The translations under genes and the position numbers were made by a program. The notes beneath the pieces were generated by a model. The model ran no database searches, was not told where the DNA came from, and was given only the letters and a program-made list of their open reading frames with translations. DNA of 64,000 nt from Thermodesulfobacteriota bacterium (GTDB lineage Bacteria; Desulfobacterota; QYQD01). The DNA is taken from assembly GCA_040754095.1 (NCBI GenBank), contig JBFMFO010000004.1, positions 3,475-67,474 on the forward strand. Direction: 5' to 3'. Numbering within the stretch: the stretch's first letter is position 1; every line of letters begins with the position of its first letter. Positions 3,960 through 52,880 of the stretch are shown here, in pieces.

Positions 3960-5294
3960 TCAAAATAAATAGACATCGACTATGGAATCCTTATCCAGTC
4001 CTTCTGTATTCATATCGACCCTGATTAATCCGTGGGCCTTGGTCATAGTGGAGATAAGCCCTGATTTGCCGAAGACAGGTTCGGCTACATAACCCGTTTC
4101 ATCTGAAAATCCCCCTGTGTCTCCCTTTCCCAAAGGGGGAATATGATGTGCTCCCCCCTTTTTAAAGGGGGGATGGGGGGATTTGAACGGCGCGTGTTTT
4201 TCATCAGGGAGGATGCGCACCCGGACATAGTCTTCCCGGCCCTGCGCAGACGGCACATTACGAGACAGCCGGGCCTTTATGAGTTGTGAGTGAGCTATTG
4301 TTTGTGGCTCAAGTCCTCCGATCCGTTGCAGCAAAGGACGGACAAAAAGCCAAAAAATAATCATGGAAGATGCCGGATGGCCGGGCAATCCCCAGAGGGC
4401 CTTCTTTCCGATCCGGGCCAGGATGGTAGGCTTTCCCGGACTTACGGATACGCCGTGCAACAGTATCCGGCTTTCAGGAAAGGACTCGAACACCGCGACC
4501 GTAAAATCCCGGCTGCCTACAGAACTCCCGCCGGATACAAGGATAATATCCGCCTGTTCTATCCCTTCGATGCACTTTGCGCGAAGGGCGTCAAATTTGT
4601 CCGGCACGATGCCCAGGTAACCAGGTATCCCGCCGTTTTCAAACACTGCGGCCCAAAGCGTATAGGCGTTGATGTCTCTTATTTTACCGGGGGGCGGCAT
4701 CTCTTGAATCGGGACTATCTCGTCTCCTGTGGAGATAATAGCCACCCGTGGTTTTTGATGAACAATGATTTTTTGCCGGCCAATTGCGGCCAATGCCCCA
4801 ATATCCTGAGGGCGTAACCTGTGTCCTCTGGACAGGATTTCTTCGCCTTTTTTCAAGTCTTCTCCACGCAGAATAACGTGTTCGCCGGGGGCGACCGTTT
4901 TCATGACCTCAATAGTCGTCTCGTCCGCTTGTTGTGTATATTCCTGCATGACTACGGCATCACCCCCTGGAGGGAGCATGCCGCCGGTCAGGATCCTGTA
5001 TGCCTGCCCACCCGAAAGCGCCCGGGAAGGAGATGCGCCCATATCTACGCTGCCGGCTATGGTCAGCAAGGCGGGCATACTTTCAGAGGAACCGAAGGTA
5101 TCTCTGGCCCGAACCGCATATCCATCCATAGTGGAACGGCTAAAGGGCGGCATATCTTCCGGTGAGATAACGGGTTCAGCCAAAATGCGCCCGGCACCTT
5201 CCGGCAGAGAGATTTCTTCCGTAGGTCCAACCGGGAACTCGTTGATAATAGCGAATACCTCGTCGGATGTCTTGACCTTAAAGAATTCTTTCAT
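3960..5294 (-). CDS. moeA: MoeA molybdopterin molybdenumtransferase paralog carrying an in-frame 37-codon repeat-element insertion
   Basis: 444 aa with MoeA N- and C-domains (SRSTMDGYAVRARD..., AEPVFGKSGLISTMTKAHGLIRV). The extra segment KHAPFKSPHPPFKKGGAHHIPPLGKGDTGGFSDETGYV is encoded by the palindromic element at 4104-4200. Confidence 0.8.
   Translation of the reverse strand: MKEFFKVKTSDEVFAIINEFPVGPTEEISLPEGAGRILAEPVISPEDMPPFSRSTMDGYAVRARDTFGSSESMPALLTIAGSVDMGASPSRALSGGQAYRILTGGMLPPGGDAVVMQEYTQQADETTIEVMKTVAPGEHVILRGEDLKKGEEILSRGHRLRPQDIGALAAIGRQKIIVHQKPRVAIISTGDEIVPIQEMPPPGKIRDINAYTLWAAVFENGGIPGYLGIVPDKFDALRAKCIEGIEQADIILVSGGSSVGSRDFTVAVFESFPESRILLHGVSVSPGKPTILARIGKKALWGLPGHPASSMIIFWLFVRPLLQRIGGLEPQTIAHSQLIKARLSRNVPSAQGREDYVRVRILPDEKHAPFKSPHPPFKKGGAHHIPPLGKGDTGGFSDETGYVAEPVFGKSGLISTMTKAHGLIRVDMNTEGLDKDSIVDVYLF
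4104..4200. repeat. MITE-like nested palindromic element, copy A (inside the moeA CDS)
   Basis: TGAAAATCCCCC...TCCCTTTCCCAAAGGGGGA...CTCCCCCCTTTTTAAAGGGGGGA...GGGGGATTTGAA. Terminal IRs AAAATCCCCC/GGGGGATTT enclose two internal hairpins. Related copies lie at 39304-39400 and 52769-52880. Confidence 0.75.
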
Positions 5295-36395: not shown

Positions 36396-38099
36396 TTGTA
36401 CAAAAAGCAGGTTTTAAGCAAGGAACTTCTCGCCGCCGAAAAGGGAGTAATCAGGAAGAAATGGCACGGTAAATTACCCGTAGCCCTCATTTATCCCAAC
36501 CATTACCATGTGGGCATGTCCAGCCTGGGCTATCAGGTCGTTTATGCCCTTTTTAATCGGAATCCGTGCGTGGTCTGTGAACGCATCTTCCTGCCGGAGG
36601 AGGGCGAATCTCCTTTTTCCATAGAGTCCCACCGGCCCCTGACCGATTTTAAGGTCCTGGCATTTTCCATCTCTTTTGAGAACGATTATCTGAATGTCCT
36701 GAAGATCCTCCAGGCCTCAGGCATCCCCATACGGACAGAAGATCGCAGCGATAAACATCCTCTGGTCATGGCCGGGGGGGTAGCAACCTTCCTCAATCCG
36801 GAGCCATTGGCCGGATATATAGACTGCTTTTTACTGGGCGAGGGGGAAGAAACCATTCCGCCTTTTCTCGATCTGTTGATAGAAAAGCAGTTTTTCGGAC
36901 AGGATCGCCGGAAGGCGCTCCGGGAACTGGCCTCCCGCCTTGACGGCCTCTATGTCCCGCAATTCTATCAGCCGGGCTACGATAAAAAGGGACGGTTAAA
37001 ATCCTTTGAGCCGGTTGAAGGGTTGCCGCAGAGCGTAAAAAGAATGAGCGTGCCTATAGTAAGGGCCGCCGAGAGACACACTATTGTCCTTACCCCCAAC
37101 ACCGAATTTGGAGACAAATTTCTTATTGAGATAGGGAGCGGATGTTCGCGAGGATGTCGTTTCTGTGCGGCGGGTTTTATCTATCGTCCGCCCCGGCCCT
37201 GGCCGGAAGAAGTCATAAATAGGGTAATTGCCGGGGCCGGGGATATTGATAAGGTGGGTCTGGTAGGGGTAGAGATTGCCGATGCCGAGGCCATAGAGCG
37301 TATCTGCAAGCATCTCATCGCACACGGTAAGGAGGTTTCGTTTTCGTCCCTGCGGGCGGACTGCCTGACCCCGGAACTCCTGGCCGCCCTGAAAACCGCC
37401 GGGTTAAAGACGGTCACCATAGCTCCAGACGCCGGATCGGAGCGCCTGCGGCGGGTAATTAATAAGGGACTGGATGAAAAAACCATAGTGGAGGCAACCG
37501 AGAGATTGGCTCAGTGGGATATCCTGAATCTCAAGCTCTATTTTATGATCGGCCTGCCTACGGAAGAAAGAGAAGATGTAGAGGCCATTGTCCACCTGAC
37601 CAAAAAGATAAAACATCATATCCTTAAAATATGCCGGGATAAAAGGCGCATGGGTACCATAACGCTCAGTGTTAACTGCTTCGTGCCCAAACCCTGGACG
37701 CCTTTCCAGTGGGTGGCCATGGATGAGTTGGAGTCGCTGCAGGACAAGATAAAGATTATCAGTCACGGCCTGCGCCACGAGGGAAACGTCCGAACCACGT
37801 TCGATGTGCCCAAGTGGGCTTACGTGCAGGCCCTCCTGGCCCGAGGAGATCGCCGGATCGGGTCTTTCCTGGAGGCGGCGTTAAAGACAGGTAGCTGGAA
37901 GAAGGCTTATAAAGAAGTGGACTTAAATCCTGATTTCTTTGTCTCCCGCGAGCGGGATCGGGATGAACTTTTCCCCTGGGATTTTATCGGCCATGGCATA
38001 AATAAAGACTACCTGTGGGAAGAATACCAGAAGGCCCTGAAGGCCGAAAAGACCATCCCCTGCCAGGTGGGAATATGCAAGCGGTGCGGGGTGTGCTGA
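36396..38099 (+). CDS. B12-binding-domain radical SAM protein
   Basis: 567 aa: CSRGCRFCAAGF CxxxCxxC radical-SAM motif preceded by a B12-binding-like N-domain. TTG start with a GGAG RBS; C-terminus ...CQVGICKRCGVC. Confidence 0.8.
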   Translation: MYKKQVLSKELLAAEKGVIRKKWHGKLPVALIYPNHYHVGMSSLGYQVVYALFNRNPCVVCERIFLPEEGESPFSIESHRPLTDFKVLAFSISFENDYLNVLKILQASGIPIRTEDRSDKHPLVMAGGVATFLNPEPLAGYIDCFLLGEGEETIPPFLDLLIEKQFFGQDRRKALRELASRLDGLYVPQFYQPGYDKKGRLKSFEPVEGLPQSVKRMSVPIVRAAERHTIVLTPNTEFGDKFLIEIGSGCSRGCRFCAAGFIYRPPRPWPEEVINRVIAGAGDIDKVGLVGVEIADAEAIERICKHLIAHGKEVSFSSLRADCLTPELLAALKTAGLKTVTIAPDAGSERLRRVINKGLDEKTIVEATERLAQWDILNLKLYFMIGLPTEEREDVEAIVHLTKKIKHHILKICRDKRRMGTITLSVNCFVPKPWTPFQWVAMDELESLQDKIKIISHGLRHEGNVRTTFDVPKWAYVQALLARGDRRIGSFLEAALKTGSWKKAYKEVDLNPDFFVSRERDRDELFPWDFIGHGINKDYLWEEYQKALKAEKTIPCQVGICKRCGVC

Positions 38100-38139
38100 T
38101 ACATAAAATGGCAAAGCGCATTAACCGTGAGGTTAAGAC
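38010..38139 (+). repeat. R1: native 3' end of the radical SAM gene plus ~40 bp downstream (reference copy of a triplicated ~130-bp direct repeat)
   Basis: CTACCTGTGGGAAGAATACCAGAAGGCCCT...GGCAAAGCGCATTAACCGTGAGGTTAAGAC. Degenerate copies lie at 39029-39156 and 40298-40425. Confidence 0.8.
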
Positions 38140-38169
38140 GTTAAAGATTTTCTTGACATGGTTATTTAT

Positions 38170-38197
38170 GTGGATTACCATAGCTATGGTAATCCAC
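38170..38197. promoter_or_regulatory. perfect 28-bp palindrome, putative operator of the RHH antitoxin promoter
   Basis: GTGGATTACCATAGCTATGGTAATCCAC lies immediately downstream of TTGACA at 38153-38158. Confidence 0.5.
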
Positions 38198-38221
38198 ATA
38201 TAGGGAGGGCCGATAGTTACT

Positions 38222-38455
38222 ATGAGAACTGTGCAGATGACACTCGATGACGATCTGGTAGAGGCAGTAGACCGTGCTGCGAAACGGCTTCACACATCAC
38301 GATCGGCTTTTACCAGGGATGCGTTGCGTGATGCGCTCACGCGCTACAGTGTAGCAAGGCTCGAGCAGAAGCACCGCCGGGGATACAAGGCGCAACCCGT
38401 CAAGAAGGGCGAGTTCAGTGTGTGGGAAGATGAGCAGGCGTGGGGGGATGAATGA
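38222..38455 (+). CDS. ribbon-helix-helix (CopG-like) antitoxin
   Basis: 77 aa: MRTVQMTLDDDLVEAVDRAAKRLHTSRSAFTRDALRDAL. Stop overlaps the toxin start (ATGA). Confidence 0.7.
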   Translation: MRTVQMTLDDDLVEAVDRAAKRLHTSRSAFTRDALRDALTRYSVARLEQKHRRGYKAQPVKKGEFSVWEDEQAWGDE

Positions 38456-38763
38456 AACGGGGAGAAGTTCGCTGGTACAAGTTCCTCCATCCTGATAAAA
38501 AGCGTCCCGTGCTCATACTGACGCGAGATTCCATTCTTGACTATCTCGGTGAAGTCACCATAGCGCCTATTACTACCACCATCAGGGACATCCCAAGCGA
38601 GGTCTTTCTTTCTCGGCAAGACGGGCTGCCTCATGATTGCGCTGTGAACTGTGATCATATCCAAACTGTATCGAAAGGCAAGATAGGCTCACTCATCACA
38701 ACTCTCCCGGCAAACAAGATGATTGAAGCTGGACGTGCCATCGCATTCGCCCTGAATCTCTGA
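38452..38763 (+). CDS. MazF/PemK-family toxin
   Basis: 103 aa: RGEVRWYKFLHPDKKRPVLILTRDSILDYLGEVTIAPITTT. Confidence 0.7.
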   Translation: MKRGEVRWYKFLHPDKKRPVLILTRDSILDYLGEVTIAPITTTIRDIPSEVFLSRQDGLPHDCAVNCDHIQTVSKGKIGSLITTLPANKMIEAGRAIAFALNL

Positions 38764-38790
38764 ATAGGAGAAGGGCTGTCCATCGCTTTA

Positions 38791-38945
38791 TAACTCCGAT
38801 TTATATGCCCCGTGCGGGAGCACGGGGAACCATATGCTGGGGGTCGAGGGGGGCGCTAAGCATCCCCTTGTCAAGGGCGGGGTTAATGCCCCGCCCGCGA
38901 AGACGAGTTGAGCGAGCGCATTGTGCGAGCTCGACGAGTTTACTT
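38791..38945. repeat. Q1: 155-bp structured repeat, identical to 42468-42622
   Basis: Contains hairpins CCCCGTGCGGGAGCACGGGG and GGGCGGGGTTAATGCCCCGCCC. Letter-for-letter identical to the second copy. Confidence 0.8.
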
Positions 38946-39028
38946 TAAGGCATTTTCTCTCATTTACTCTTCAGTTCCTCGATCCACTCCGGCGGGACTC
39001 CGGCGCGGTAGGCATCCCGGTAGCCCCT

Positions 39029-39156
39029 ACCTGTGGGAAGGATACCAGAAGGCCCTCAAGGCCGAAAAGACATCCCCTGCCAGGTAGGGAAGTGCAAGCG
39101 GTACGGGGTATGCTGATACACAAAATGGCAAAGCGCATTAACCGTGAGGTTAAGAC
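39029..39156 (+). repeat. R2: degenerate copy of the radical SAM 3' end (~88% identical, 1-nt deletion)
   Basis: ACCTGTGGGAAGGATACCAGAAGGCCCTCAAGGCCGAAAAGACATCCCCTGCCAGG...GCGCATTAACCGTGAGGTTAAGAC. Confidence 0.75.
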
Positions 39157-39303
39157 CTCCCAGCAGAATAAACGGATTACAGCCGACGTAATAAGTATCC
39201 GCCCGACTAATAGAAGACACGTAGTTTACTTAATTAAGGATGTTCCATTTTCTTCCCCCAAAAACTACTTTCTGAGTATCAGTTTAGCTGGTTGAAAAAG
39301 TAT

Positions 39304-39400
39304 TTTAAAATCCCTCCCAACCTCCCTTTTCCAAAGGGAGGAGAAACACCTCCCCCCTTGAAAAAGGGGGATTAAGGGGGATTTTTGAGGCGCCGTTTTT
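39304..39400. repeat. MITE-like nested palindromic element, copy B
   Basis: TTTTAAAATCCCTCCC...CCTCCCTTTTCCAAAGGGAGGAG...CCTCCCCCCTTGAAAAAGGGGGATTAAGGGGGATTTTTGA. Confidence 0.7.
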
Positions 39401-39477
39401 TGGACGACCAGCTCTTTTCAAACAGCTAAAGTGTTACCTTTCTGAAAATATAAAAAATATCCGTTGAAATAGCATGA

Positions 39478-39792
39478 ATGCCGTGCTATTATGTATATGT
39501 GATTCAGGCATTCAAGAATAAAGGGACAGAGGATATTTTTAATGGTAAAAATACAAAAGAAGCCAGAAAAGTATGTCCTCGATCACTATGGCAAGTCGCC
39601 TCAAGAAAACTGGATCAACTCGATTCTGTTCAATTCTTGGATGAGTTACGTATTCCACCTGGAAACAAGCTTGAGGCTTTATCAGGAAACAGAGAAGGGG
39701 AATATAGTATTCGCATAAATGACCAGTATCGGATTTGTTTCAAGTGGACAGAGGCTGGTCCCGATGTAGTTGGAATTACTGATTACCACTAA
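39478..39792 (+). CDS. higB: HigB-type toxin (RelE/ParE superfamily)
   Basis: ...IQAFKNKGTEDIFNG...LEALSGNREGEYSIRINDQYRICFKW. The real start may be in-frame GTG 39499. A TTGAAA-17-TATTAT promoter with an ATAGCA/TGCTAT IR sits upstream. Confidence 0.75.
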   Translation: MPCYYVYVIQAFKNKGTEDIFNGKNTKEARKVCPRSLWQVASRKLDQLDSVQFLDELRIPPGNKLEALSGNREGEYSIRINDQYRICFKWTEAGPDVVGITDYH

Positions 39793-39814
39793 TTTTTTAA
39801 AAAAGGGGATAGAA

Positions 39815-40144
39815 ATGGTTCGTGTACGTGTACCTACACACAGGGAGCCAACGCATCCTGGTGAAATGTTACTTGAAGAGTTCTTGATTCCCATGGGTAT
39901 TACTCAAAGGGAATTAGCAAATGCTATTCATGTTCCCTACCAGCGTGTCAATGAAATAATTAATAAGCGGCGGGGAATAACACCAAGTACAGCATTACGC
40001 CTTGCTAGATTTTTTGGCATGTCAGAAGATTTCTGGATAAGTCTCCAATTGCGCTGGGATTTATTCAAAGCAAAACAAACAGAGATTAATGAATTGAAGG
40101 CTATCAAACCGTTCCCCTTAAGTCACCATGCTGCTCATTCATAA
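39815..40144 (+). CDS. higA: HigA-type HTH (XRE) antitoxin
   Basis: MVRVRVPTHREPTHPGEMLLEEFLIPMGITQRELANAIHVPYQRVNEIINKRRGITPSTALRLARFFG. ATG 39815 has an AAGGGGA RBS; the track ORF begins at 39770. Confidence 0.75.
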   Translation: MVRVRVPTHREPTHPGEMLLEEFLIPMGITQRELANAIHVPYQRVNEIINKRRGITPSTALRLARFFGMSEDFWISLQLRWDLFKAKQTEINELKAIKPFPLSHHAAHS

Positions 40145-40297
40145 ATTAATTGGGGATGAAAGGTACTGCTGTTGACAAATTACTGGGCATGGTTCAGTCT
40201 TCTGTCAGTCGGGCAGTAGCGCGCGGAGAAAGATTAACTCTCGACAGTCAATTAAATCTGGTCAAATGATAAATTGCATAAAAGCATGACCGTATTC

Positions 40298-40425
40298 CCT
40301 GTGGGAAGAATACCAGAAGGCCCTCAAGGCCGAAAAAACCATTCCCTGCCAGGCAGGAAAGTGTAGGCGGTGTGGGGCCTGCTAATACGCAAAACGGCAA
40401 AGCGCATTAACCGTGAGGTTAAGAC
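40298..40425 (+). repeat. R3: degenerate copy of the radical SAM 3' end
   Basis: CCTGTGGGAAGAATACCAGAAGGCCCTCAAGGCCGAAAAAACCATTCCCTGCCAGG...GGCAAAGCGCATTAACCGTGAGGTTAAGAC. Confidence 0.75.
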
Positions 40426-40611
40426 CCTATCAGGCGGGCGATAGATTGGCTGGAGAAACAAGTAAGCAGAAAAAACATAGTGAGAAACAACGTTAAATAC
40501 GACGGATTATAAAGTGCGTTTTGTGCACCGCTCACCGCTAACAGGTGGCGTCTTGGCGCGTGTGATGCACTACGTTTTGGGCTTTCCGCACTATTAGAGG
40601 AGGATTAAGGC

Positions 40612-41688
40612 ATGGTAACCAAGCTGAATATTAGTGGATTTAAGGGGTTTGAAAAGCTCGAATTGCCCCGATTGTCCAGGTTTACACTTCTGGGTGGACG
40701 AAATAACGTTGGAAAGACCTCTGTCCTCGAAGCTGTGTTTATGTTCTTCGACAGGCTTAACCCTCAAATGATTCTCCGCCAGTTTGATTGGCGCGGCGTG
40801 AACGCTGTATCACTAGAGCCTGACACTCTGTGGGCGCCGGTGTTTTTCAATTATGACCTCGGGAAGCCAATGGCTATTTGTGCAGTTATTGATGGTAGCG
40901 AAGAAAAAATGACCGTGAAATTCAATCCAAACTACGTTGAACCTGGGATACAGGCGAAGGCATCCGATTCGGGAATGAAACCTCTTCACGTGCGAACAGA
41001 CCAGAAGCCCATCCCTTCCTACGCTCTGGACATTGAATATAGAAGAAAACAAGAAAGGGTACAGGTATCGCACATGTTGATAGGACCGAGCGGAATCGGC
41101 TTACGAATCGACCATGCAAAGGTAAAACAGCGGGCTGCGGTTTTCCTTGTATCCAGAATGCATGTCAACCCATCGGAAGACGCCGAGCGGTTTGGCCAGC
41201 TTGACATTGTGGGACAACAGGACAGAATCCTTGAGTTTCTGCGACTGGTGGAACCCAAGCTGAAGAGCCTATCATCCATTGCTATGGGTGATACTTCGCT
41301 GATCCATGGGGATATTGGTCTATCAAGAAAAATCCCCGTATCCTACATGGGGGAAGGTGTCTCTCGGCTGCTTTCGATTATTCTGGCCATAGCCACCTCA
41401 AAAAATGGCGTCGTACTTATCGATGAGTGCGAGAATGGCATCCATTATTCGATTATGTCCAAAGTTTGGGAAGCCATAGGGAAAGCGGCCCGGGAATTCG
41501 ATTGTCAGGTAATTGGAACAACACACAGTTACGAATGTCTTAGATCCGCCTACGAAGGGTTTGGCGGAGAGTTGAAACAGGATTTCAGCTACGTGCGTCT
41601 TGACAGAATAGACGATAACGTGGTGGCCAAAACGTTTGAGTATGAGCTGCTAAAAACTGCAATTGAGTCCGGGATGGAGGTACGCTGA
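40612..41688 (+). CDS. ABC-type (SMC/RecF/OLD-like, AAA_21/AAA_15-type) ATPase, candidate defence ATPase
   Basis: 358 aa: ISGFKGFEKLELP...LLGGRNNVGKTSVLEA (Walker A), VVLIDECENGIHYSIM (Walker B/D-loop), IGTTHS (H-loop). GGAGG RBS; 1-nt gap to the next gene. Confidence 0.7.
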   Translation: MVTKLNISGFKGFEKLELPRLSRFTLLGGRNNVGKTSVLEAVFMFFDRLNPQMILRQFDWRGVNAVSLEPDTLWAPVFFNYDLGKPMAICAVIDGSEEKMTVKFNPNYVEPGIQAKASDSGMKPLHVRTDQKPIPSYALDIEYRRKQERVQVSHMLIGPSGIGLRIDHAKVKQRAAVFLVSRMHVNPSEDAERFGQLDIVGQQDRILEFLRLVEPKLKSLSSIAMGDTSLIHGDIGLSRKIPVSYMGEGVSRLLSIILAIATSKNGVVLIDECENGIHYSIMSKVWEAIGKAAREFDCQVIGTTHSYECLRSAYEGFGGELKQDFSYVRLDRIDDNVVAKTFEYELLKTAIESGMEVR

Positions 41689-41690
41689 CT

Positions 41691-42329
41691 ATGGTACGAC
41701 CTCCTGTTCAGATAAAGGAAAAGAAACTATTACTGGTGGAAGGAACCGACGCCTTATACTTTGCTGTATGGGCATACCAGGCATTTGGTGCAACGGGAAT
41801 GCAGGTGTTGAACTTCGGCGGCAACACGGAACTTGGCTTGTATTTGAGATCGCTAACCCAGTTATCGGGTTACGAGGGTATAGAAGCAATAGCCATTGCG
41901 CGTGATGCCGAAAACGATCCGAAAGGGGCAATTGACAGTATTAGGAAAGCATTAAAGGCTTCCGGCCTTTCTGTCCCAAAAGTGCCCTTTCAATTCGAAG
42001 GCTCTTCTCCCAAAATAGCCTTTATGGTCTTCCCAGGGTTTTCCGTTGATCCGGACGGCAATGAGTATGTTGCACCGGGGACACTGGAAGACCTTTGTCT
42101 GGAAACACTCGAGGATACCAAAGTTCTGAGTTGTGTTGACCAGTATATCTCTTGCCTGGAAACCGCGGGAGAACCGGTTAGATGTCTTCACAAATCGAGA
42201 CTTCACGCCTATCTCGCCGGTAAAAGCAATTTCGTGGGCCTGAAGATCGGCGAAGCGGCTAAGGCTGGCGCCTGGAATTGGCAACACCCCGGGCTGGAAC
42301 CGTTCAAACGCATTATTTTGGGCATGTAG
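41691..42329 (+). CDS. small Toprim-like partner protein, possibly DUF4276/DUF4435-like; putative nuclease effector
   Basis: 212 aa: KKLLLVEGTDALYF (conserved Glu in strand 1) and IAIARDAENDPKG (acidic D..E.D motif) suggest a Toprim-like fold. Translationally coupled to the ATPase gene. Confidence 0.5.
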   Translation: MVRPPVQIKEKKLLLVEGTDALYFAVWAYQAFGATGMQVLNFGGNTELGLYLRSLTQLSGYEGIEAIAIARDAENDPKGAIDSIRKALKASGLSVPKVPFQFEGSSPKIAFMVFPGFSVDPDGNEYVAPGTLEDLCLETLEDTKVLSCVDQYISCLETAGEPVRCLHKSRLHAYLAGKSNFVGLKIGEAAKAGAWNWQHPGLEPFKRIILGM

Positions 42330-42467
42330 TATATGGAGAGTGGGCCGCCCTTAAGATTCTAAGTTGACAATGTATTAGGAGGAAAGACAAGGGGGCAGGG
42401 CTACACGGGCTGTTGCCCAAAGCAATTTTATGGTACTCCGCTACCATATCGCATCATAGTGGAAACT

Positions 42468-42622
42468 TAACTCCGATTTATATGCCCCGTGCGGGAGCAC
42501 GGGGAACCATATGCTGGGGGTCGAGGGGGGCGCTAAGCATCCCCTTGTCAAGGGCGGGGTTAATGCCCCGCCCGCGAAGACGAGTTGAGCGAGCGCATTG
42601 TGCGAGCTCGACGAGTTTACTT
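42468..42622. repeat. Q2: 155-bp structured repeat identical to Q1, nested between 17-bp perfect inverted repeats (42405-42421 and 42679-42695)
   Basis: Flanking IR ACGGGCTGTTGCCCAAA / TTTGGGCAACAGCCCGT seen directly in the sequence. Confidence 0.8.
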
Positions 42623-42927
42623 CTTGATTTTGTTGAATGCAGGTCTTGACTGGATTGTTAATTTTCACCAAATTTGGATTTGGGCAACAGCCCGTACACA
42701 TTAAAACTGCACGCGTGATTCAGGATTTCCCGGCATGTAAAACTGCTAGGCATGTTCAGCACGGACGGCCCCTTCTTTCTCACCCCCAAAAAGACTCCCT
42801 GGAATAGATCAAGACAGGAGAAAATTAATTTATCCCCTTTATGTTGAGGTGTGGGGCATTGTTGCGTCTTTCGCTTTTCCGTATTAGGTTGAACAGAATG
42901 ATATAAGGAAAAGGTGGTAATATTTGT

Positions 42928-43752
42928 ATGCCCACGAAACACAAGCGATTTAAACTCATTCTGGAGTACGATGGCGGCCGTTACAGTGGCTGGCAGAAGC
43001 AGAAGGATACAAAAACCATCCAAGGGAGTCTCTTGCGGTGCGCAGGCGAACTTTTCGGGGAGCAGGTGGATATTCAGGGCAACGGGCGCACCGATGCCGG
43101 CGTCCATGCCTTGGAGTACGTTGCCCACCTGGAGGCAGCGACCGATCTCGGCCCGCAGGAGATCGTCCGGCGGCTCAATGACATTCTACCCCAGGATATA
43201 AATGTCCTGAAAGTGGAAAGGGCGGGATCCCAGTTCCATGCCCGTCATGATTGCGTGGGACGCAGTTACCTGTATCAGATTGCCAAGCGTAAAACCGTCT
43301 TCCGCAGGCATTACGCCTGGTGGGTGAAAGACCCCCTCAAGGTGCCGGTCATGCGGGAGGCGTCAGCCTTACTGACCGGGATGAATGACTTTTCCTCCTT
43401 TACAGACCGCCAGGCCATCAAGAAAAAATCTCCTTTGGTTATGGTCAACAATACGTTGCTGCACGAAACTGACGACATCATCCTTTTCCGTATTGTCGGC
43501 TCCCATTTCCTCTGGAAGATGATCCGCCGGATCGTCGGCGTGCTGGTTGCCGTGGGGAATGGCAGCCTCAGTGTTGATGAGGTACGGCGTTTTCTTGTGG
43601 AGCCGGTGAACTTGAACCGTTTTACTGCCCCAGCCCACGGCCTCTTCTTTGAACGTGCCTTTTACAACGATGAAGAGCTAAAAGGATTTATCAGTTCGGA
43701 AGAAATCCCGCCCGCTCCTACGCACCAGGTGCAGGCCCAACCCCTGACGTAG
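42928..43752 (+). CDS. truA: tRNA pseudouridine(38-40) synthase TruA
   Basis: 274 aa: LILEYDGGRYSGWQKQ and GRTDAGVHA catalytic Asp motif. Confidence 0.9.
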   Translation: MPTKHKRFKLILEYDGGRYSGWQKQKDTKTIQGSLLRCAGELFGEQVDIQGNGRTDAGVHALEYVAHLEAATDLGPQEIVRRLNDILPQDINVLKVERAGSQFHARHDCVGRSYLYQIAKRKTVFRRHYAWWVKDPLKVPVMREASALLTGMNDFSSFTDRQAIKKKSPLVMVNNTLLHETDDIILFRIVGSHFLWKMIRRIVGVLVAVGNGSLSVDEVRRFLVEPVNLNRFTAPAHGLFFERAFYNDEELKGFISSEEIPPAPTHQVQAQPLT

Positions 43753-44045
43753 GCGGTGTGATAATGGCAGTTAAGACAAGACCCTGTGCCGCCATAATGG
43801 GAATTGTGGTTATGGCAGGCGGGGCAAAGGTCTCTGGAATGTGGGGCGCTCCAACTCGCTACAGTGATCCCGTTGACTGATTTTCGGAGAAGATAAGGTC
43901 TGGGCGACCCATGCGGTTCATGACAGTCGGTACAACAGAGGATGAAATTAATGTAATTGGCCGCATGGTAAGGGTCTTTCAGGCTGCCCCAGTTGGAACA
44001 GTTTGGCTCTGCACATCCGCATCCCTGGCCGGTGTTTCCGTCCAC
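43662..44045 (-). pseudogene. truncated multiheme cytochrome c fragment, paralog of the C-terminus of 49346-50599
   Basis: GSLKDPYHAANYINFILCCTDCHEPHG...CPACHNHNSHYGGTGSCLNCHYH versus GSIKDPYHAANYINFILSCTDCHEPHG...CKSCHVHIGHCGGPGSCLTCHFHN. No signal peptide or N-terminal hemes; overlaps the truA 3' end by 90 nt. Confidence 0.5.
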
Positions 44046-44184
44046 ACCAAAACAGCGGGTGATGGAGCCGTGATAATACTTGTGATCAGATGGGAAATAA
44101 TCGCGCCGGGGTCAAGTTCTTGTGGGCTTGCGCCGTAAAGTATAGGTGAATATACATCCTTAGTTGAAAGGAGTGTCGGGCACT

Positions 44185-45123
44185 ATGGGAAGTTTTATGA
44201 GGTATGGCATTTTATCTTTCTTTTTTCTTTTGGTTCTATGTTGTTACAGCGCCCCGTGTCTCGCTTTTGATCAAAATGCAGGTGGTAAAGAGTGCCACCT
44301 GACCATACTGTACTCGGGCAATACATGGGGGCATGTAAAGCCCTGTCCGGGTTGAGGCGACAGGATGCTGGGCGGTCTGGCCCGGCGGTCAGGGGCTATA
44401 GGGCAGATAAGGGGGCGCAGCAATTGTGTCTTATTGCTCGATGCCGGCGACAGCCTCTTTGGAAGGTGTAAGTATTCCCCATGTGAGTTGCCGTTGGCCC
44501 GGGAAAGGGCGGAGTTCATCTTAAAAAGCTACCTGGACATGGGTTATCATGCGATAAATATTGGTCTTGAAGACTGGGAGGATGGCGATTTTCTCATGAC
44601 CAGAATAAAGGGGGAAAAGTACCCTTTTGTAGCCGCAAATTTAAAAGGCGCTGATCCGGCTCTAACTTTGCCTCCATCCTTCGCTGTCATAGATGTTTGT
44701 GGGTGTAAGGTAGGTATCCTTGGCCTTATGAACGATCGAAGAGGACACGTTGAGGGACATCCGGATATTATAGTAAGTGATGCCAAGATCGTGATTAGGG
44801 ACATTGTTCCCGGGTTGAAAAAGGAGTGTTCCCTTGTGGTGATGCTGTCTAATCTGGGGACCAGGACAGATACGAAGCTTGCTGAAGAGGTTGACGGCCT
44901 GGACATCATCATTGAAAGCGGAAGCGGCGCTTTATGCAAGCCCTGGAAGATAAACAATACCTACATATGTTCTCCTAAGCCGGAAGGCCACTGGCTGGGC
45001 CGCCTTGACGTAATCGTGACCCCGGGCGGTGAGATCAAACAGATCAGCCATCAAATATTGATACTCGATGAGAGCATTCCGGAAGATGAAAGGATGCGCA
45101 AAGAAATAGAAAATAGGTTTTAG
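44185..45123 (+). CDS. secreted 5'-nucleotidase/metallophosphoesterase-like protein with in-frame TGA (44353-44355); either a selenoprotein (CPG-U) or a pseudogene
   Basis: Signal peptide MGSFMRYGILSFFFLLVLCCYSAPCLA. HLTILYSGNTWGHVKPCPG-TGA-GDRMLGGLARRSG...LLLDAGDSLFG aligns to the 5'-NT N-domain. Both track ORFs (44164-44355 and 44365-45123) are in the same frame. Confidence 0.5.
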
Positions 45124-45217
45124 CTGTGGAGCAATCGGAATGTGTTTTATCAGAATAAGAGCTGGTTATTACCGGGGTAAGGTCCCAATAACATGTAAAG
45201 GATTCGTGAGCGTTGGT

Positions 45218-48200
45218 CTAGAGTCCATAAAGAGTCCTCTGATGTAAAGAAGTCTTGATGGAGCTCCCGCCGTATTTTCTTATTGTATCCATCAGTCGGA
45301 GTAAGGTATTCCTGGCGGACCCCAGATGCGGATCTATCTCTAGCGCCGTTTTATAAGAGTCCAAAGCCTTAGCCAATTGTCCCGTGGCTTCGTAACACAT
45401 GCCCAGATTAAGATGGATGACTGCTGCATTCGGATCAAGAGCCAGAATCTTCAGCAGGGCCTCTTCGGCCTCTTCGAAATCTCCGCCCTGCCAGTATAGA
45501 TTTGCCAATACACTCAGGATCTGACAGTATTTCTGGTTCGCGTCCGGGCCTTTCTGAATTTTTTTTAGCTCTTTCAGAAGATTAAGTTCCATTAGCTCTC
45601 TTTTTAATGCGCGGTCTTCGGGATTGCTTTTGGCCATGGTCTGAAGTCCCTCTATAGCATGATCATACATCCCTTGAATCTTATACAAACTGACCAAGTC
45701 CGGGAGATGGTCTTCACAGTATCCCACTGCCTTCTCAAGTTCCCGCGTGGCTTCTATAAACCGCCTTTGCTTCCAAAAATCCAGAGCGCTGCTATAATTA
45801 TGGATGCTCCGGTAGGGCGGAGGCCTCAGATTCCTTGGCTCCCTCAACCGGGCGGTAGCATAGGCTATGATGTCTTCAGCACTCGTACGCCCGCTTAACC
45901 GGTCCAGACATTTTGGGGCTACTCGGTTTGCCCGGTCTAATTCCAACACTTTTAGAAAGCCCTTTTTTGCCCTAGCGAATTGTAAGGCATTTTCATAACA
46001 GGTAGCCATGTTGAGATGATTCATTATGGAATTGGGCTGAAGCCTTACCGCTCCTTCCAATTCGGCCAGGGCTGAATCAAAGCTTCCCCTTTCCAAGTAG
46101 GCGAGCCCCAGCCTTTGTCTGGCTTCCGGACTATTGGGCAGATAGTTTACCATCCTTTTGGCATAGATCAGGTTGAGCCCCTTTCTAATCTTTTCAGAAA
46201 GCCAGGGTACAGGTCCAAGTTTGGTTGCAATATCCAACTGCTCTACCGCTTCGTCAAACTTATTCAAACCGAAATAGGCCTTTGCCAGTCCGAAATGGGC
46301 ATCAATGGATTTGGGTTCTGTTTCGAGGACCTTCTTAAACCAGCCTGTTGCTGCGGAAAAATCTTCAGCGTTCAAGCTGGAGAAGCCCAGATTCTGGCAG
46401 ATGGTATAGTCTTTGGGATTTTCCGTTAAGGCCCTGAGCAGGATGGCCTTTGAATTATGCGAACAGCCGAGCATATCACGGGCTACTTCAGACACCGGAT
46501 TCAGTTCCAGCGCTCGCCGATACATCATATTTGCCAGGTGAAACTGACTGTCGAGTTCGAGGAGTCGTCCAGCCAGTATATAATCCCTCTCCATAATATA
46601 GCGTTTCAAGGCGAGATCACCGGGACCGGTCTTTAGATATCGAACTATATCGCTCCGCCTGACCAGAAGCTCTTGCAAGATTCTTTTCACTCCCCGATGT
46701 CGTTCCACAGGGCCAAAGTATCTCTTGGCTGCTGCGTATTCCAGATAGGAATTATCATCCGTGTTGCATAGTCCCTTCTGCCCGATGAGCTGCAAGATAC
46801 CTTCATTGTCTAACAAAAAGAAACTTAGCAACTGCCGACAATCGAGGACTGAGATGGCAGCCAGGTCCTCCCGAATCGCTTTCCGGTTGAAATGCTGTTC
46901 CAGTTTGCGCAAGTCTATGGAGAGAGGCTGAATCATTCCCATAAGGATGCACCATTCGTTGCGGCCAGCCGGTGTATGCCAGAGATACACGTGGGGGAAA
47001 ACCGTTTTCATAGATCGGAGAATCACCTTGAAATCCTCCGGAGTAAGCTCGTAGAGAGGTGCCCAGGTAGAAAATATTCCCCCGGTTCTGAGTTTATCTT
47101 TGCAAAGGCGAAAGTATTCTACGGTATAAAGCGACCCGTTGCCGGCGATAGTTGGATGAATGGAATCAGAGAGTATAACATCATATCTTCGGGTTCCTCT
47201 CACCAAAAAACTTCGCACATCATCTATGGCCAAGTTCAGTTTGGACTTATCGAGGACCTTCTGATTCACATCCGCAAAAAAACCAACGGTGTCTATCACT
47301 TCCGGGGAAATTTCCACACTATCTACGTGGTCTATATTGTGCCGGGTTACGGAAGAGGCTGTCTCACCGCTTCCAAACCCGATTTGCAGGATTTCCCGGG
47401 CCTGGCTATGTATCAGGAGCGGAATATGAGCCTGCAGCTTTTGAGATGTCCTGAACTTGAAGTCCGTACCAGAGACATTTACTCCATTTATGGCCAGTTG
47501 CAGAGAGTAGTCAGGCAACCGGTGCACGGTAACGGTTCCGCCGACCCCCTCCCTTGCGAAGACAGTCCTGATTTCTTCATTCCCTTTAGAAAATATAGAG
47601 ATAAAAGCGTCTTGATCCATCCAGAAGTAGCCGCCCAGAAACAAGAAGGCTGCGGTGACTTGTGCAAAAATTACCCTTACTCTGCGATCCAGGCACCGCA
47701 TTAGAATCAAAGCCGCTACGATGATGTTGAGCAAAGCTATGAAAATCAGACTCCGCCTTGTACCTAGAACAGGCAAGAAAATCAGACCGGCCATGATGGC
47801 ACCAAGGATGGCCCCGATCGTATTTGCCGAGTAAATTGTCCCGATTTTGTGCCCTATTTCCTTTAGATTGTCGGTATAGATACGGCTTGCCATGGGGAAG
47901 GTGGCACCGAGAAAAACGGAGGGTACGAAAACCAATGCCAGACAGGCGAGGGCAAAATAGGTCATACTGCGCCAGTATGGATCAGGAATAAGTTCAACAT
48001 AATCTCTGGCGAATTCCTGGAGAGAATTCAATCTCACGACTAAAGGAATCGAAAGGACAGAGATGAAGGCGAGCGTAATTTGCAGTCCGGCGAGAGTTTG
48101 CCTGAGGGGTCTGATTTTGTCGGCCAGGAAACTCCCGATATAACTCCCCACGGCAAACCCCAGCAAAAAAAGCGTGAGCATGGTTGAAAAGGTATATACC

Positions 48201-49024
48201 AGTACCCCTGGCGAGAAAAAGACCAGTACCCTTGTCCAGACTATTTCGTAAGCCAGGCCGGTAAAACCCGAAAGCCCTATAGCCCAGACTATCATGTTGT
48301 CCGGTCCGAATTTGCTTTTCTGGTTACCATAGTTCGTGCGCCCTGTTCTATTTAAAGAAGCGGTCGCCGGCGGAATTTCTGCGTTATTGTATCTATGCAG
48401 ACCAAACGAGAGTAGCCCGGCTATTGCGGCTACTCCAAAATTCATGCCGACTGTGAGATGCGTCGTGCCTTGGATACCAAAGACCTCTATGAGAAAGAAA
48501 CCACCTATGAAGCAACCAACAACTGCGCCCAGGGTATTTGCCGCATAGAGTTCACCCGTGATTCGGCCAATCTTATCATTACTGGTTGCAGCGAACCGGC
48601 ACAGGATGGGAAGTGTCCCTCCCATTAAAGTAGTAGGAGCAAGGATCAAAATGAAACAGAAAACAATTTGAGCCAGCCGGAACGAAAAGGGAGTGTTTCC
48701 CATGAAGCGGCAGATCCATATATAGAGTGGGGTAAGGGCTGAGAAGAGAAAAGGCAGGCTAAGGGCCAGGAAGGCGATAGCTGCTTCGATAATGGCATAG
48801 GTCAGAAGCGGTCTGTTTTTCCGGTCGATAAGCTTGCCAAATTTATAGCTGCCTATAGCCAGCCCTGCCATGAATGCGGCCAGGATAATACTGGCGGCAA
48901 AAGTAGTATTTCCCAGGATCCGCGCCAGTATCTTCACCCACAATACTTCATAGATGAGGGCGCAGGTCCCGGAAAGAAAAAACAATACGTATACCGCCCG
49001 TCTAATCCATTCTCTGCCGGACAT
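45218..49024 (-). CDS. fused MFS-type membrane domain / spermidine-synthase-like domain / TPR-repeat protein
   Basis: 1268 aa: ~14 TM helices in two MFS-like halves, then VLQIGFGSGETAS...DVILSDSIHP (aminopropyltransferase/class I MTase fold), then a ~600-aa TPR array. Confidence 0.75.
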   Translation of the reverse strand: MSGREWIRRAVYVLFFLSGTCALIYEVLWVKILARILGNTTFAASIILAAFMAGLAIGSYKFGKLIDRKNRPLLTYAIIEAAIAFLALSLPFLFSALTPLYIWICRFMGNTPFSFRLAQIVFCFILILAPTTLMGGTLPILCRFAATSNDKIGRITGELYAANTLGAVVGCFIGGFFLIEVFGIQGTTHLTVGMNFGVAAIAGLLSFGLHRYNNAEIPPATASLNRTGRTNYGNQKSKFGPDNMIVWAIGLSGFTGLAYEIVWTRVLVFFSPGVLVYTFSTMLTLFLLGFAVGSYIGSFLADKIRPLRQTLAGLQITLAFISVLSIPLVVRLNSLQEFARDYVELIPDPYWRSMTYFALACLALVFVPSVFLGATFPMASRIYTDNLKEIGHKIGTIYSANTIGAILGAIMAGLIFLPVLGTRRSLIFIALLNIIVAALILMRCLDRRVRVIFAQVTAAFLFLGGYFWMDQDAFISIFSKGNEEIRTVFAREGVGGTVTVHRLPDYSLQLAINGVNVSGTDFKFRTSQKLQAHIPLLIHSQAREILQIGFGSGETASSVTRHNIDHVDSVEISPEVIDTVGFFADVNQKVLDKSKLNLAIDDVRSFLVRGTRRYDVILSDSIHPTIAGNGSLYTVEYFRLCKDKLRTGGIFSTWAPLYELTPEDFKVILRSMKTVFPHVYLWHTPAGRNEWCILMGMIQPLSIDLRKLEQHFNRKAIREDLAAISVLDCRQLLSFFLLDNEGILQLIGQKGLCNTDDNSYLEYAAAKRYFGPVERHRGVKRILQELLVRRSDIVRYLKTGPGDLALKRYIMERDYILAGRLLELDSQFHLANMMYRRALELNPVSEVARDMLGCSHNSKAILLRALTENPKDYTICQNLGFSSLNAEDFSAATGWFKKVLETEPKSIDAHFGLAKAYFGLNKFDEAVEQLDIATKLGPVPWLSEKIRKGLNLIYAKRMVNYLPNSPEARQRLGLAYLERGSFDSALAELEGAVRLQPNSIMNHLNMATCYENALQFARAKKGFLKVLELDRANRVAPKCLDRLSGRTSAEDIIAYATARLREPRNLRPPPYRSIHNYSSALDFWKQRRFIEATRELEKAVGYCEDHLPDLVSLYKIQGMYDHAIEGLQTMAKSNPEDRALKRELMELNLLKELKKIQKGPDANQKYCQILSVLANLYWQGGDFEEAEEALLKILALDPNAAVIHLNLGMCYEATGQLAKALDSYKTALEIDPHLGSARNTLLRLMDTIRKYGGSSIKTSLHQRTLYGL

Positions 49025-49345
49025 AAGGTATCAGCAATAAGTAACGTTCATCGACATCTTAAAGCCTATCATATCTGTTTTTCGGCTTTTGTAAACTAAT
49101 GGATAAAAGTTTACTAAGCCCGTTTGTCCGGGCTTATGAGTCCAGGCGCAGGGGGAGCCGGTGGTGAGAGCAAGAAAGGAATCTTAATGAGCCTGACAGT
49201 TGAAGCTCCCCGCAGCAAGCTGCGGGGAATCTCCGTATGCAAGGTAAAAGCATCGTATTCGCTCGCTAACCCCGCTGCAAGCACCGGGGAATGCGCTCGC
49301 TATGCATGTTCAATGGCTCTTCAGCTTAGCGGCTCAGTGAAACTT

Positions 49346-50599
49346 TCAGAAAGAATTGCCGGCTGCGCCGAAGGGGCCTCCGCATTGCCAACTGCCCCAG
49401 CATTTGGAAGCGGCGTTGTGGAAGTGACAGGTCAGGCAACTGCCAGGCCCCCCACAATGTCCGATATGTACGTGGCAAGACTTGCAGAATTCGGCCTCCC
49501 AGGTCCAGGGACCCGGCCCGGGCGGATACCGGTTATAATGGCCGTTTACTGTTTTGCGCAGGAGATAAGGAGTTGTTGTATTATGGCCGTGAACCGCCCC
49601 GTGAGGTTCATGGCAGTCCGTGCAGGAAAGGATGAAATTGATATAATTGGCCGCGTGATAAGGGTCTTTTATGGACCCCCACGCCATTCCGTCCACGGTA
49701 TTGCAGCGGGTTACGCTGCCGTGATAGTCGCCGGGGAAGGTCCGTTTATTGGGCTGCGCCCAGTCGATTTTTTTCAGATTTCTGCCGAGGGTTGTGCTGT
49801 AAATATCGTTTGTGGCATTGTGACAGTCTGAACAGAAGGTAACGTAATCGGGTAGATTCGAGCCGTCAGTGATCCCGGACCCGTCCGGTTCGTAAGTAGT
49901 AGTTGAGCTATATTGATAAGGGGCCTGATATTGACCTCCATGGGCAACCGCGTAGTCACTCATCTTTTCCCCGGCCCCATCACCCCAGATATTATTGCGA
50001 TCTGTTGGTCTTACGATCGGATAGCTGCGCTGAGAGATATGCGGGTTATGACAGGCGTTACAAGGGTTTGATTCATTGCCAAATGTTTCCGGCCACTTTG
50101 TTTTCACAAAATCGAGTATGTCTTGAAGGTTGTGGGCAGAGCCGGAGACAGGGTTAAAGGTATCATAAATATTATTGGGTGTGGTGTGATTGACAATATC
50201 CCCACCAAACCAGTAACTATAGTTATAATTTGTCCGGTCGAAGGATATCTGTAGCGAACCCGCTCCTTCATGGCAATAGTAGCAAAAGCCCTCTGTCTGA
50301 CTGGTAAAGTTATCTGCAAAGATGGCGTACCTGGAAGCGTTTCCACCTGCCGGTGCGGCCTCCTGGCCATCAATACGGGCATGCTGCTCATGGCAGTGGC
50401 CACAGTGGCCTTTGGTATAACCAATGGTAGCGGTAGCGCTCCGGTTAACCCCATAACTCGTATTTCCATGGGCCGAGTTAAAGTAGGTACCGGCAAAAAG
50501 TGGAAGAGACTTGCACAGGAATATACTGAGACAAAGAGAAAGGGCACAGACCGGGAGGCCCAACCATAGTTTCTTACGACGCGGCACTATAACCCTCAC
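49346..50599 (-). CDS. multiheme cytochrome c (7 CxxCH), secreted
   Basis: 417 aa with signal peptide. CGHCH, CYYCH, CNACH, CSDCH, CTDCH, CKSCH, CLTCH. Confidence 0.8.
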   Translation of the reverse strand: MRVIVPRRKKLWLGLPVCALSLCLSIFLCKSLPLFAGTYFNSAHGNTSYGVNRSATATIGYTKGHCGHCHEQHARIDGQEAAPAGGNASRYAIFADNFTSQTEGFCYYCHEGAGSLQISFDRTNYNYSYWFGGDIVNHTTPNNIYDTFNPVSGSAHNLQDILDFVKTKWPETFGNESNPCNACHNPHISQRSYPIVRPTDRNNIWGDGAGEKMSDYAVAHGGQYQAPYQYSSTTTYEPDGSGITDGSNLPDYVTFCSDCHNATNDIYSTTLGRNLKKIDWAQPNKRTFPGDYHGSVTRCNTVDGMAWGSIKDPYHAANYINFILSCTDCHEPHGAVHGHNTTTPYLLRKTVNGHYNRYPPGPGPWTWEAEFCKSCHVHIGHCGGPGSCLTCHFHNAASKCWGSWQCGGPFGAAGNSF

Positions 50600-50675
50600 T
50601 GAACACAGGAACTTATGGGGGAAGCTCTAACTACTTATCGGCAATCTTGCAGGCAAAGATTAAACCTTGCCCGTG

Positions 50676-51836: not shown

Positions 51837-52144
51837 TGCTGCGAGGGAAATTGTTTATACGCGCAATCTTACACACATCTTGATTCAATATTCTAAAACG
51901 GTATGAATTACAAGTGAAAAAAACACGGTCTTGTGGAAGAGTATTTCCCTCGGTTGAGAAAAACTTTTCACACTATTGGGAATAGACTTCCATTTGCACT
52001 TTTTCCTAAAACTAAACCGCAAGAGGTGAGTAGGCCTGTATTTGTTTCTATGGGTGAGCAAAGGGCAACAACTACGTCAGTGACAGATATTGTTGCTGTT
52101 ATGGGTTGGTTGAACGCGAGGCCGCGATGTGCCTCGTTTCTTGA

Positions 52145-52768
52145 TTACTTACTCTTCAGTTCCTTAATCCATTCCGGCGGGGCTCCGGCGCGGTAGGCAT
52201 CCTGGATAAGACCCTGGTCAAGCATGTATTGGGCCTTTTTGGCTTTTTCTTCCAGTTCCGGCGTGATCTCCTGCAACCGTTTCAATTCCCGGTAGTCATC
52301 AATAAGTGGCCCCTGGTTAAGGATGATGCCCTCTTCAGTGCGTGTTCCCTGCCTTACCCTTCCCCGGCGTAACGTCGCTATATCCTCATTATTTTTTTTA
52401 ACTTGTTCGGTTAACCGTTTGACCTCATCCTGCCACTTTTTCTTTTGCCCCAGCCACCATTCTTTATTTTGTCCCCTCACATCGGTGCGGGTATCCGGCT
52501 TTTCCTCTGCTGATAGGGGCGGCGGTACAGGTGATACGGTCGGCGCTATGGATTTCTCCGGTGCGGGTGGCGGGGGTGGCCGCCTATCTATGCTTTTTTG
52601 CTCTGCGCGTCCCTTAAATCTGGAAGGTACATTTTCCGGATTATCTGTGTAATGTGTTACGCCCTTCTCGTCTGTCCATTTATATATCGTACCCTGGGCG
52701 AAGGAAACAGATACAGAAATTACACAGACGGTAGCGATAACCAGTTTATACCATAAGGATATTTTCAT
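52145..52768 (-). CDS. DUF4124-domain secreted protein with Pro-rich linker and coiled coil
   Basis: 207 aa: signal peptide, IYKWTDEKGVTHYTDNPENVP (DUF4124-like), then a PPPPPAPEK linker. Its ATGAAA start abuts the MITE copy C. Confidence 0.6.
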   Translation of the reverse strand: MKISLWYKLVIATVCVISVSVSFAQGTIYKWTDEKGVTHYTDNPENVPSRFKGRAEQKSIDRRPPPPPAPEKSIAPTVSPVPPPLSAEEKPDTRTDVRGQNKEWWLGQKKKWQDEVKRLTEQVKKNNEDIATLRRGRVRQGTRTEEGIILNQGPLIDDYRELKRLQEITPELEEKAKKAQYMLDQGLIQDAYRAGAPPEWIKELKSK

Positions 52769-52880
52769 CTGAAAATCCCCCTGTATCCCCCTTTTCCAAA
52801 GGGGGAATTGATGGGACTTCGTCTTTCCCCAAAAGGGGGGCTTAACGGATGCCCCCGTTTTAGTAAAGGGGGGTAAGGTC
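52769..52880. repeat. MITE-like nested palindromic element, copy C
   Basis: CTGAAAATCCCCCTGTATCCCCCTTTTCCAAAGGGGGAATTGATGGGACTTCGTCTTTCCCCAAAAGGGGGGCTTAACGGATGCCCCCGTTTTAG. Confidence 0.7.

Follow-up and report, generated by a model that had tools for sequence, protein, structure and literature searches.

We consider it probable that three short repeats in a 64-kb stretch of DNA from a Thermodesulfobacteriota MAG (the whole stretch analysed, called the window below) are non-autonomous members of a repeat family that is very widespread, most likely doublets mobilised by a DUF559 protein. The doublets insert as units, the module from which they are built has three covarying parts, and a DUF559 gene is bracketed by such modules. 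The first-pass annotation of the window had described three copies of a nested palindromic, MITE/REP-type small-repeat family; this was a correct and fairly ordinary MITE call with one over-reading of a start codon, and the three copies are present, with somewhat different limits.

The repeating unit is a module of ~35 nt that consists, in order, of a segment S1 (AAAT and then a pyrimidine run), a linker of 3-4 nt, the 5' hairpin arm S2, a loop and the purine 3' hairpin arm S3; two modules of different classes (below) joined tail to tail form a doublet of ~78 nt. The doublets measure 72-155 nt and are mostly intergenic. The core motif CCCTTTYCCAAAGGGRGGA (three or fewer mismatches) is matched five times in the window, compared with 0.08 matches expected from shuffled sequence (~60-fold enrichment), and a half-unit profile finds five strong half-units in the 64 kb (E = 1e-9 to 2e-6) and no further convincing ones in the same profile search. 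The 10-mer AAAATCCCCC alone is not enriched in the window (nine matches versus 10.2 expected), so the signal lies in the combined architecture.

Copy A is a 95-nt doublet (TGAAAATCCCCC...GGGGGGATTTGAACGGCGCGTGTT) at 4104..4198 of the plus strand, inside moeA; its left module (4107..4141, plus strand, nhmmer E = 2e-7) has S1 AAATCCCCC, S2 TCTCCCTTT and S3 AAAGGGGGA, and its right module lies inverted at 4152..4184 (minus strand, E = 1.7e-6). Copy B is a 162-nt composite element at 39276..39437 (plus strand) in which outer 23-nt inverted arms (39276-39298 and 39415-39437, 87% complementary) enclose a core doublet at 39307..39385 (plus strand, nhmmer E = 1.6e-9 and 3.2e-9), itself made of a left module of class GGGAGG (39308-39342) and a right module of class GGGGG (39351-39384). 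Copy C extends from about 52770 to 52878 (plus strand), with an intact left half (module at 52773-52807, nhmmer E = 1.2e-9) and a degenerate right half. The identity of ~80% first given for these copies is too high: over the left 46 nt, A is 93% identical to C and 65% identical to B, and the three-way alignment has a mean column identity of 66%. The window copies fold better than shuffled sequence (z = -2.4 to -4.7). Rfam has no match in the window at its gathering thresholds, and a relaxed Rfam search returned only far sub-threshold matches to eukaryotic miRNA hairpins, which are meaningless.

Copy A was inserted as a unit, in frame, adding 102 bp to its host gene. The window moeA (3960..5294, minus strand; Pfam MoeA_N, MoCF_biosynth and MoeA_C) is a 444-aa open reading frame, within which the annotation had correctly placed a translated element; it includes a 34-aa insert, KHAPFKSPHPPFKKGGAHHIPPLGKGDTGGFSDE, and alignment of its product to the solved P. 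horikoshii MoeA (PDB 1uz5) breaks at query residues 362-400. Orthologues at 83% identity are 410 aa long and lack these 34 residues, and one orthologue at 87% identity retains them. At the DNA level the element is absent from loci L120 and L121 and present in L122, and the filled and empty alleles differ by exactly 102 nt, that is, the element plus one TTTCATC. Empty alleles read ...GTGATGAA|ACGGGC..., and filled alleles have GATGAAA at both ends of the insert. On the plus strand this heptamer is TTTCATC (GATGAAA on the moeA coding strand); the empty site has a single copy of it and the filled site one at each end (4097..4103 and 4199..4205 in the window), so it is either a target or a duplicated sequence, and in consequence an element end falls on ATG-AAA gene starts. 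The search for target-site duplications that had been suggested thus gives this 7-bp repeat at one filled/empty pair, and flanking direct repeats at the ends of 66 doublets show no excess over shuffled controls. The insert is open in two of its six frames, including the one used, with no stop in 34 codons, and the flanking MoeA blocks are intact; the element adds 34 residues between two conserved MoeA blocks and is retained in two lineages. In-frame palindromic insertions are already known, for example the Rickettsia palindromic elements (RPEs; PMC10969869). Copy A resembles these as a palindromic in-frame insert between conserved blocks of a housekeeping enzyme, and differs in that its host belongs to an unrelated phylum and that, of the three window copies, it alone lies within a gene; the likeness drawn here is one of behaviour.

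A longer composite MITE, situated in a variable island, has copy B as its core. A 177-nt stretch is 94% identical to locus L003, and there are matches in loci L101 and L106 of MAG151 (GCA_040755415.1), a related genome with ~91% DNA identity to the window in places. Two proteins of the window, MoeA and DUF4124, are 100% identical to NCBI proteins of a Thermodesulfobacteriota MAG. An element of the same type lies directly after moeA in L122 (3962-4074; 90% identical to window 39276-39388), and synteny between the window and L122 stops exactly there, so these repeats coincide with rearrangement breakpoints. The search for a higBA promoter supplied by copy B found a single promoter-like site, at 39464-39492, which is outside the element. 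The 14-kb island itself (38100-52145) lies between two convergent genes, a radical-SAM gene (36396-38099) and the DUF4124 gene (52145-52768), whose ends are 4 nt apart in the distant orthologous locus L126. It carries two toxin-antitoxin cassettes (RHH plus PemK at 38222-38763 and higBA at 39478-40144), an AAA-ATPase gene and re-duplicated 3' ends of both flanking genes: a 128-nt repeat present three times (38012, 39029 and 40298), a 57-nt sequence at 38964 that matches 52149, and a 155-nt repeat with 100% identity at 38791 and 42468.

Copy C fills the 110-nt spacer between a histidine-kinase stop codon and the start codon of the DUF4124 gene (ORF 52145-52768, minus strand, Pfam DUF4124), and thus adjoins that start codon as had been noted. 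The further proposal was that the element end supplies both a Shine-Dalgarno-like tract and the ATG. The first part holds, in that the sequence GGGGGA (52776..52781, minus strand), 7 nt upstream of the ATG (52766..52768, minus strand), is element-derived; the second does not. The spacers of the window, L123 and L125 are 107-110 nt long, contain the element and read GGGGGATTTT(C/T)AG-ATG-AAA, whereas L124 (85% identical protein) has an unrelated, element-free spacer of 126 nt that reads GAGGTGTGTA-ATG-AAA and L126 (66% identical protein) an element-free spacer of 33 nt that reads GAGGTGTAGAACA-ATG. Because the element-free L124 has ATG-AAA at the same codon, the DUF4124 ATG-AAA is older than the element. 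The GAGGTG Shine-Dalgarno sequence of the element-free orthologues is missing from the window leader; judged from this comparison of leaders, the element has evidently replaced the native Shine-Dalgarno region of the DUF4124 gene, and its G-run (GGGGGA) would then act as the ribosome-binding site. The element end GGGGGATTTTCAGATGAAA is found in five copies in four genomes, and in L097 it again coincides with a gene start, that of a gene with a CBM48 isoamylase-type (TreZ-like) N-terminus. These ends at gene starts, together with the empty moeA site, point to insertion at (G)ATGAAA, a sequence with which bacterial genes very often begin. 

Locus L101 of MAG151 was considered as an empty site for copy C and is unusable, since its DUF4124 gene is truncated: at L101 5400-6400 an antitoxin/PemK-like toxin cassette has cut the orthologue to its last ~110 codons, and a doublet adjoins. 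The element-free spacer of L124 (1375-1500) has tandem CCGTTCA heptamers, and 1.3 kb away (3488-3624) is a gene with weak matches to Y1_Tnp and DnaA_C; these may belong to a different repeat system.

How widespread is the family? An exact-pattern scan of species-representative genomes found at least 119 loci in many phyla, and AAAT plus a C-run stands 10-11 nt upstream in 116 of the 137 matches listed; the repeats are thus not a few local copies that lack conserved ends. Hosts include Thermodesulfobacteriota, Nitrospirota, Desulfuromonadota, Beta- and Gammaproteobacteria, Patescibacteria, Elusimicrobiota, Planctomycetota and others (mis-binning of MAGs may inflate this breadth somewhat), and the repeat is also present in cultured bacteria, among them Lysobacter, Nitrosomonas, Geomonas and Acinetobacter. 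Related genomes have copies that are nearly identical and share the same flanks. Phages were rejected as carriers: only about 6 of 44 matches in viral contigs are true family members, and the rest are one unrelated Bacillus prophage hairpin. This conserved hairpin, GGAGGGAGCTACTAACGGCTCCCTTTTCCAAAGGGAGAA, lies upstream of a gene start in L020 and 36 viral loci (within L210-L253) and has no S1. One contig, the Gallionellaceae MAG locus L070 (253-284), ends in the Illumina adapter GATCGGAAGAGCACACGTCTGAACTCCAGTCA directly after the hairpin and is an assembly artefact.

The modules are alike in architecture, but in what way are their three segments related? S2 is the mirror image of S1, so the purine arm S3 is the parallel complement of S1, and modules fall into classes according to this sequence. 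Written as S3 with its S1 in parentheses, the classes are AGGGGGA (TCCCCCT), AGGGGGG (TCCCCCC), AGGGAGG (TCCCTCC), AGAGGGG (TCTCCCC), AGGGAGA (TCCCTCT), AGGAGGG (TCCTCCC) and AGAGGGA (TCTCCCT). At the loci found by DNA motif, 142 of 202 units have S1 and S3 as exact parallel complements at all seven positions, compared with 40 ± 5 (maximum 60) after permutation; in an independent set of loci retrieved from the protein side (below), 98 of 144 units do so, compared with 23 ± 4 (maximum 37). Exact agreement is thus found in ~70% of units versus 16-20% after permutation, across 6-7 classes and in both sets. Shifting the register lowers the per-position S1-S3 agreement from the observed 83-85% to 54-57%, and the length of the S1-S2 linker is tightly distributed. 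Two simpler relationships were tried and rejected, and the shift controls agree in both cases: S1 is not a direct repeat of S2 (of 52 CTCCCT hairpins, 37 have the mirror sequence upstream and one has the direct copy), nor is it a Watson-Crick partner of S3.

The doublets separate these relationships further, as 64 of 70 tail-to-tail doublets are heterotypic (the two halves differ in class). In 52 of these 64 each S1 follows the arm of its own hairpin, and no doublet among the 64 has two identical S1s. The inverted terminal arms (AAATCCCCC/GGGGGATTT) that the first-pass annotation called terminal inverted repeats are therefore present in the doublets, but they are not evolutionary partners of one another, and the idea that the outer arms covary as terminal repeats is rejected, as each covaries with its own hairpin.

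A pyrimidine-motif triplex requires a parallel correspondence of T for A and C for G. We read the S1/S3 covariation as the likely signature of an intramolecular triplex, for which it is strong circumstantial evidence tempered by the fact that the classes are few and partly inherited by descent. S1 would sit in the groove of the S2/S3 hairpin, giving a pyrimidine-motif triplex within one strand, and the complementary strand, which obeys the purine-motif rule (G.G-C and A.A-T, antiparallel), would form a Mg-dependent G.G-C purine-motif triplex. Mirror repeats are not favoured by any protein-DNA symmetry known to us. The module has in common with H-DNA that S1, linker and S2 form a pyrimidine mirror repeat with a 3-4-nt spacer and that the purine strand, S3, is present in cis, which together make up the arrangement of a fold-back triplex; it differs from H-DNA and from designed triplexes in that its triplex is a prediction from covariation and its arms are short, at 7-8 triples.

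Clustering of all open reading frames within 2.5 kb of modules gave one specific family of ~120 aa, present in seven loci from different phyla, to which tblastn added L056 and L100. The family is Pfam DUF559 (PF04480; E = 1e-32 to 1e-37), and it is the sole specific gene family that recurs next to modules among the loci listed; other recurrent families are generic (ABC ATPases and sensor-kinase paralogues). No transposase family recurs beside modules among the 119 loci listed. The statement that no transposase accompanies the repeats is accordingly right for the window, which contains neither a transposase nor a DUF559 gene, and incomplete for the family, which has a recurrent gene outside it. 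The DUF559 profile matches PDB 3hrl, an endonuclease-like protein of N. gonorrhoeae (E = 4e-31), and weakly the homing endonuclease I-Bth0305I (PDB 3r3p, E = 1e-3); the conserved acidic residues D52 and D65 do not vary, and five of six sequences have an H after them. DUF559 has been placed in the Vsr clade of PD-(D/E)XK nucleases (PMC3424549, PMC3239194).

On the coding strand the DUF559 gene is preceded by a hairpin, a G-run followed by ATTT, 10-20 nt and then the ATG, and its stop codon is followed by AAAT, a C-run and a hairpin. Among 80 metagenome loci retrieved from the protein side and scored for modules by a strict pattern, an upstream module is present at 54 of 79 (ending a median of 12.5 nt before the gene), a downstream module at 49 of 74 (starting a median of 10 nt after it) and both at 38 of 73, against a background of 0.13 modules per kb; most of the remaining loci have, by eye, degenerate modules. 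About two-thirds of this DUF559 subfamily is bracketed by modules. The module-DUF559 units, which occur in many phyla, are 413-478 bp long (median 440) and their outer flanks are unrelated, so they behave as discrete insertions; a TA at their ends is possible, and is not separable from the boundary definition used. Compared with the doublets, their modules are inside-out, with the hairpins outward and S1 next to the gene, and there are 34 head-to-head module pairs that have no gene. Two examples come from cultured isolates: in Desulfuromonas versatilis (AP024355.1, L254) a module-flanked DUF559 gene lies between Cas_GSU0054 and cas4/cas1, and in Nitrosomonas ureae (CP013341.1, L255) one lies between the type I restriction genes hsdM and hsdS. 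Plasmid pAQ6 of Picosynechococcus PCC 7002 (L207) and a Deinococcus plasmid (L208) have a shorter DUF559-flanking module (C-run, C-run, loop, G-run) that lacks the TTT/AAA stem extension; this suggests that the architecture is older than the sequence family. The plasmid search found few close DUF559 relatives.

Two arrays were also seen. At L012 5100-6300 (Nitrospirales, OY820905.2) there are tandem units of ~274 bp, each with a module pair and a 46-aa DUF559 fragment, near an intact module-flanked DUF559 gene. At L051 1-1600 (a Flavobacteriaceae MAG) an array with a period of ~293 bp surrounds a DUF559 gene, and its variant module has an extra small hairpin, GTCAGCGAAGCTGAC, in the S1-S2 linker.

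From this arrangement, the ~120-aa DUF559 protein, a Vsr-like PD-(D/E)XK protein, appears to be the best candidate for the mobilising enzyme. Its cutting at or near modules would promote the copying of the ~440-bp unit with its gene and of gene-less doublets, and the feature it recognises would be the folded module, the hairpin clamped by S1. A doublet resembles the junction of a circularised or tandem gene unit, and we may speculate that it arose as one. In its full form this proposal, that the module is a fold-back triplex recognised or cut by the DUF559 nuclease and that a nuclease-only autonomous unit of ~440 bp and its doublet derivatives make up an undescribed class of mobile element present in many bacterial phyla, is put forward tentatively and on sequence comparison; we think it less likely to be right than wrong. 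Several facts weigh against DUF559 as the mobiliser: a nuclease does not by itself suffice to integrate DNA, a flanking repeat is present at a single filled/empty pair, the modules around the gene are inside-out relative to the doublets, and there is no DUF559 gene within the 64-kb window. DUF559 genes could instead be parasites or passengers of the repeats.

The strongest alternative, though in our estimation an unlikely one, develops this last point: the modules would persist by other means (as host-selected structural sites, or through recombination or replication slippage) and DUF559 would be a homing-type parasite of module junctions. The position of the gene between the S1 ends of two facing modules, where it interrupts an GGGGGATTT...AAATCCCCC palindrome as homing endonuclease genes interrupt their targets, is what such a parasite would produce, and the gene-free head-to-head pairs would be its uninterrupted sites. 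A relative with the Vsr fold, I-Bth0305I of the EDxHD family, is moreover a proven homing endonuclease (PMC3239194), and DUF559 shares with it the profile match and a small nuclease gene in a selfish context. I-Bth0305I, however, resides in a group I intron, with NUMOD DNA-binding regions at its N-terminus, whereas the DUF559 proteins have a single domain of ~120 aa and are free-standing between structured repeat modules. Homing also leaves the de novo insertion of a doublet into moeA unexplained, and in most DUF559 units the two proximal modules are the only ones, the DNA beyond them being unrelated.

An improbable alternative is that the doublets are classic IS-derived MITEs moved in trans by the DDE transposase of an IS with matching ends. 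The family does fit a loose definition of a MITE: like bacterial MITEs such as Correia, ERIC and Nezha (PMC10969869), the doublets are small (~80-180 bp is the size in common), end in inverted arms (AAAATCCCCC/GGGGGATTTT), contain no ORF, are inserted within genes or close to them and can change expression signals, and the moeA copy has its 7-bp flanking repeat. Unlike those elements, they have outer inverted arms that do not covary with each other, matching in none of the 64 heterotypic doublets, which is unexpected of terminal repeats bound by a transposase; a possible target duplication is seen in one case only; no parent IS with a DDE transposase, nor any recurrent transposase family, was found near modules among the 119 loci listed; and the sole gene found bracketed by modules is DUF559.

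Less probable again is that the doublets are REPs or REPINs moved through single-stranded intermediates by a Y1 transposase (RAYT, IS200-like). Palindromic units of 30-35 nt in inverted, mostly intergenic doublets are typical of such a system, the constant 7-mer beside one end of the A/C subfamily resembles a fixed IS200/IS605 target, and the weak Y1_Tnp gene mentioned above lies 1.3 kb from one orthologous locus, L124. That gene, however, adjoins an element-free allele, no module-flanked Y1 gene was found among the loci listed, and the GTAG or CGTC tetranucleotide by which the two REP superfamilies are tagged (PMC3733652) is missing from the modules. The possibility that the similarity is a chance resemblance of low-complexity G/C runs is negligible, for although the 10-mer AAAATCCCCC is not enriched by itself, the full motif is, profile E-values reach 1e-9, near-identical copies with the same flanks exist in related genomes, and there are filled and empty alleles.

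With mobilisation by DUF559 as the preferred reading, the system by analogy appears to work most like REPIN doublets and their flanked RAYT gene in Pseudomonas and E. coli. Both have short palindromes, inverted doublets (70 tail-to-tail doublets here) that are dispersed mainly between genes, and a gene for a small enzyme bracketed by inverted copies of the unit. The present modules differ in that they begin with AAAT and a C-run in place of a GTAG/CGTC tag, in that the bracketed gene is a DUF559 PD-(D/E)XK nuclease and not a Y1 HUH transposase, in that there is a third covarying segment, S1, and in that the module sequence is nearly constant over many phyla, whereas REPs are lineage-specific. 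We found no prior description of the repeat family or of its association with DUF559 in the literature searched, the coverage of which was incomplete.

For annotation, start-site and ribosome-binding-site predictions beside these elements need care, and the 34-aa MoeA insert is an example of the stray 'PPFxKGG...GGF' peptides that the elements add to predicted proteins. A repeat that crosses phyla, with triplex-type covariation and a candidate new enzyme partner, merits experiments. If the proposal is true, the modules would be a repeated natural test case for triplex or H-DNA in bacteria, with three-way covariation; DUF559, a large domain-of-unknown-function family with at least 7,727 close relatives, would gain its first function; and there would be a second, REPIN-like partnership between a repeat and an enzyme, with a different catalytic fold.
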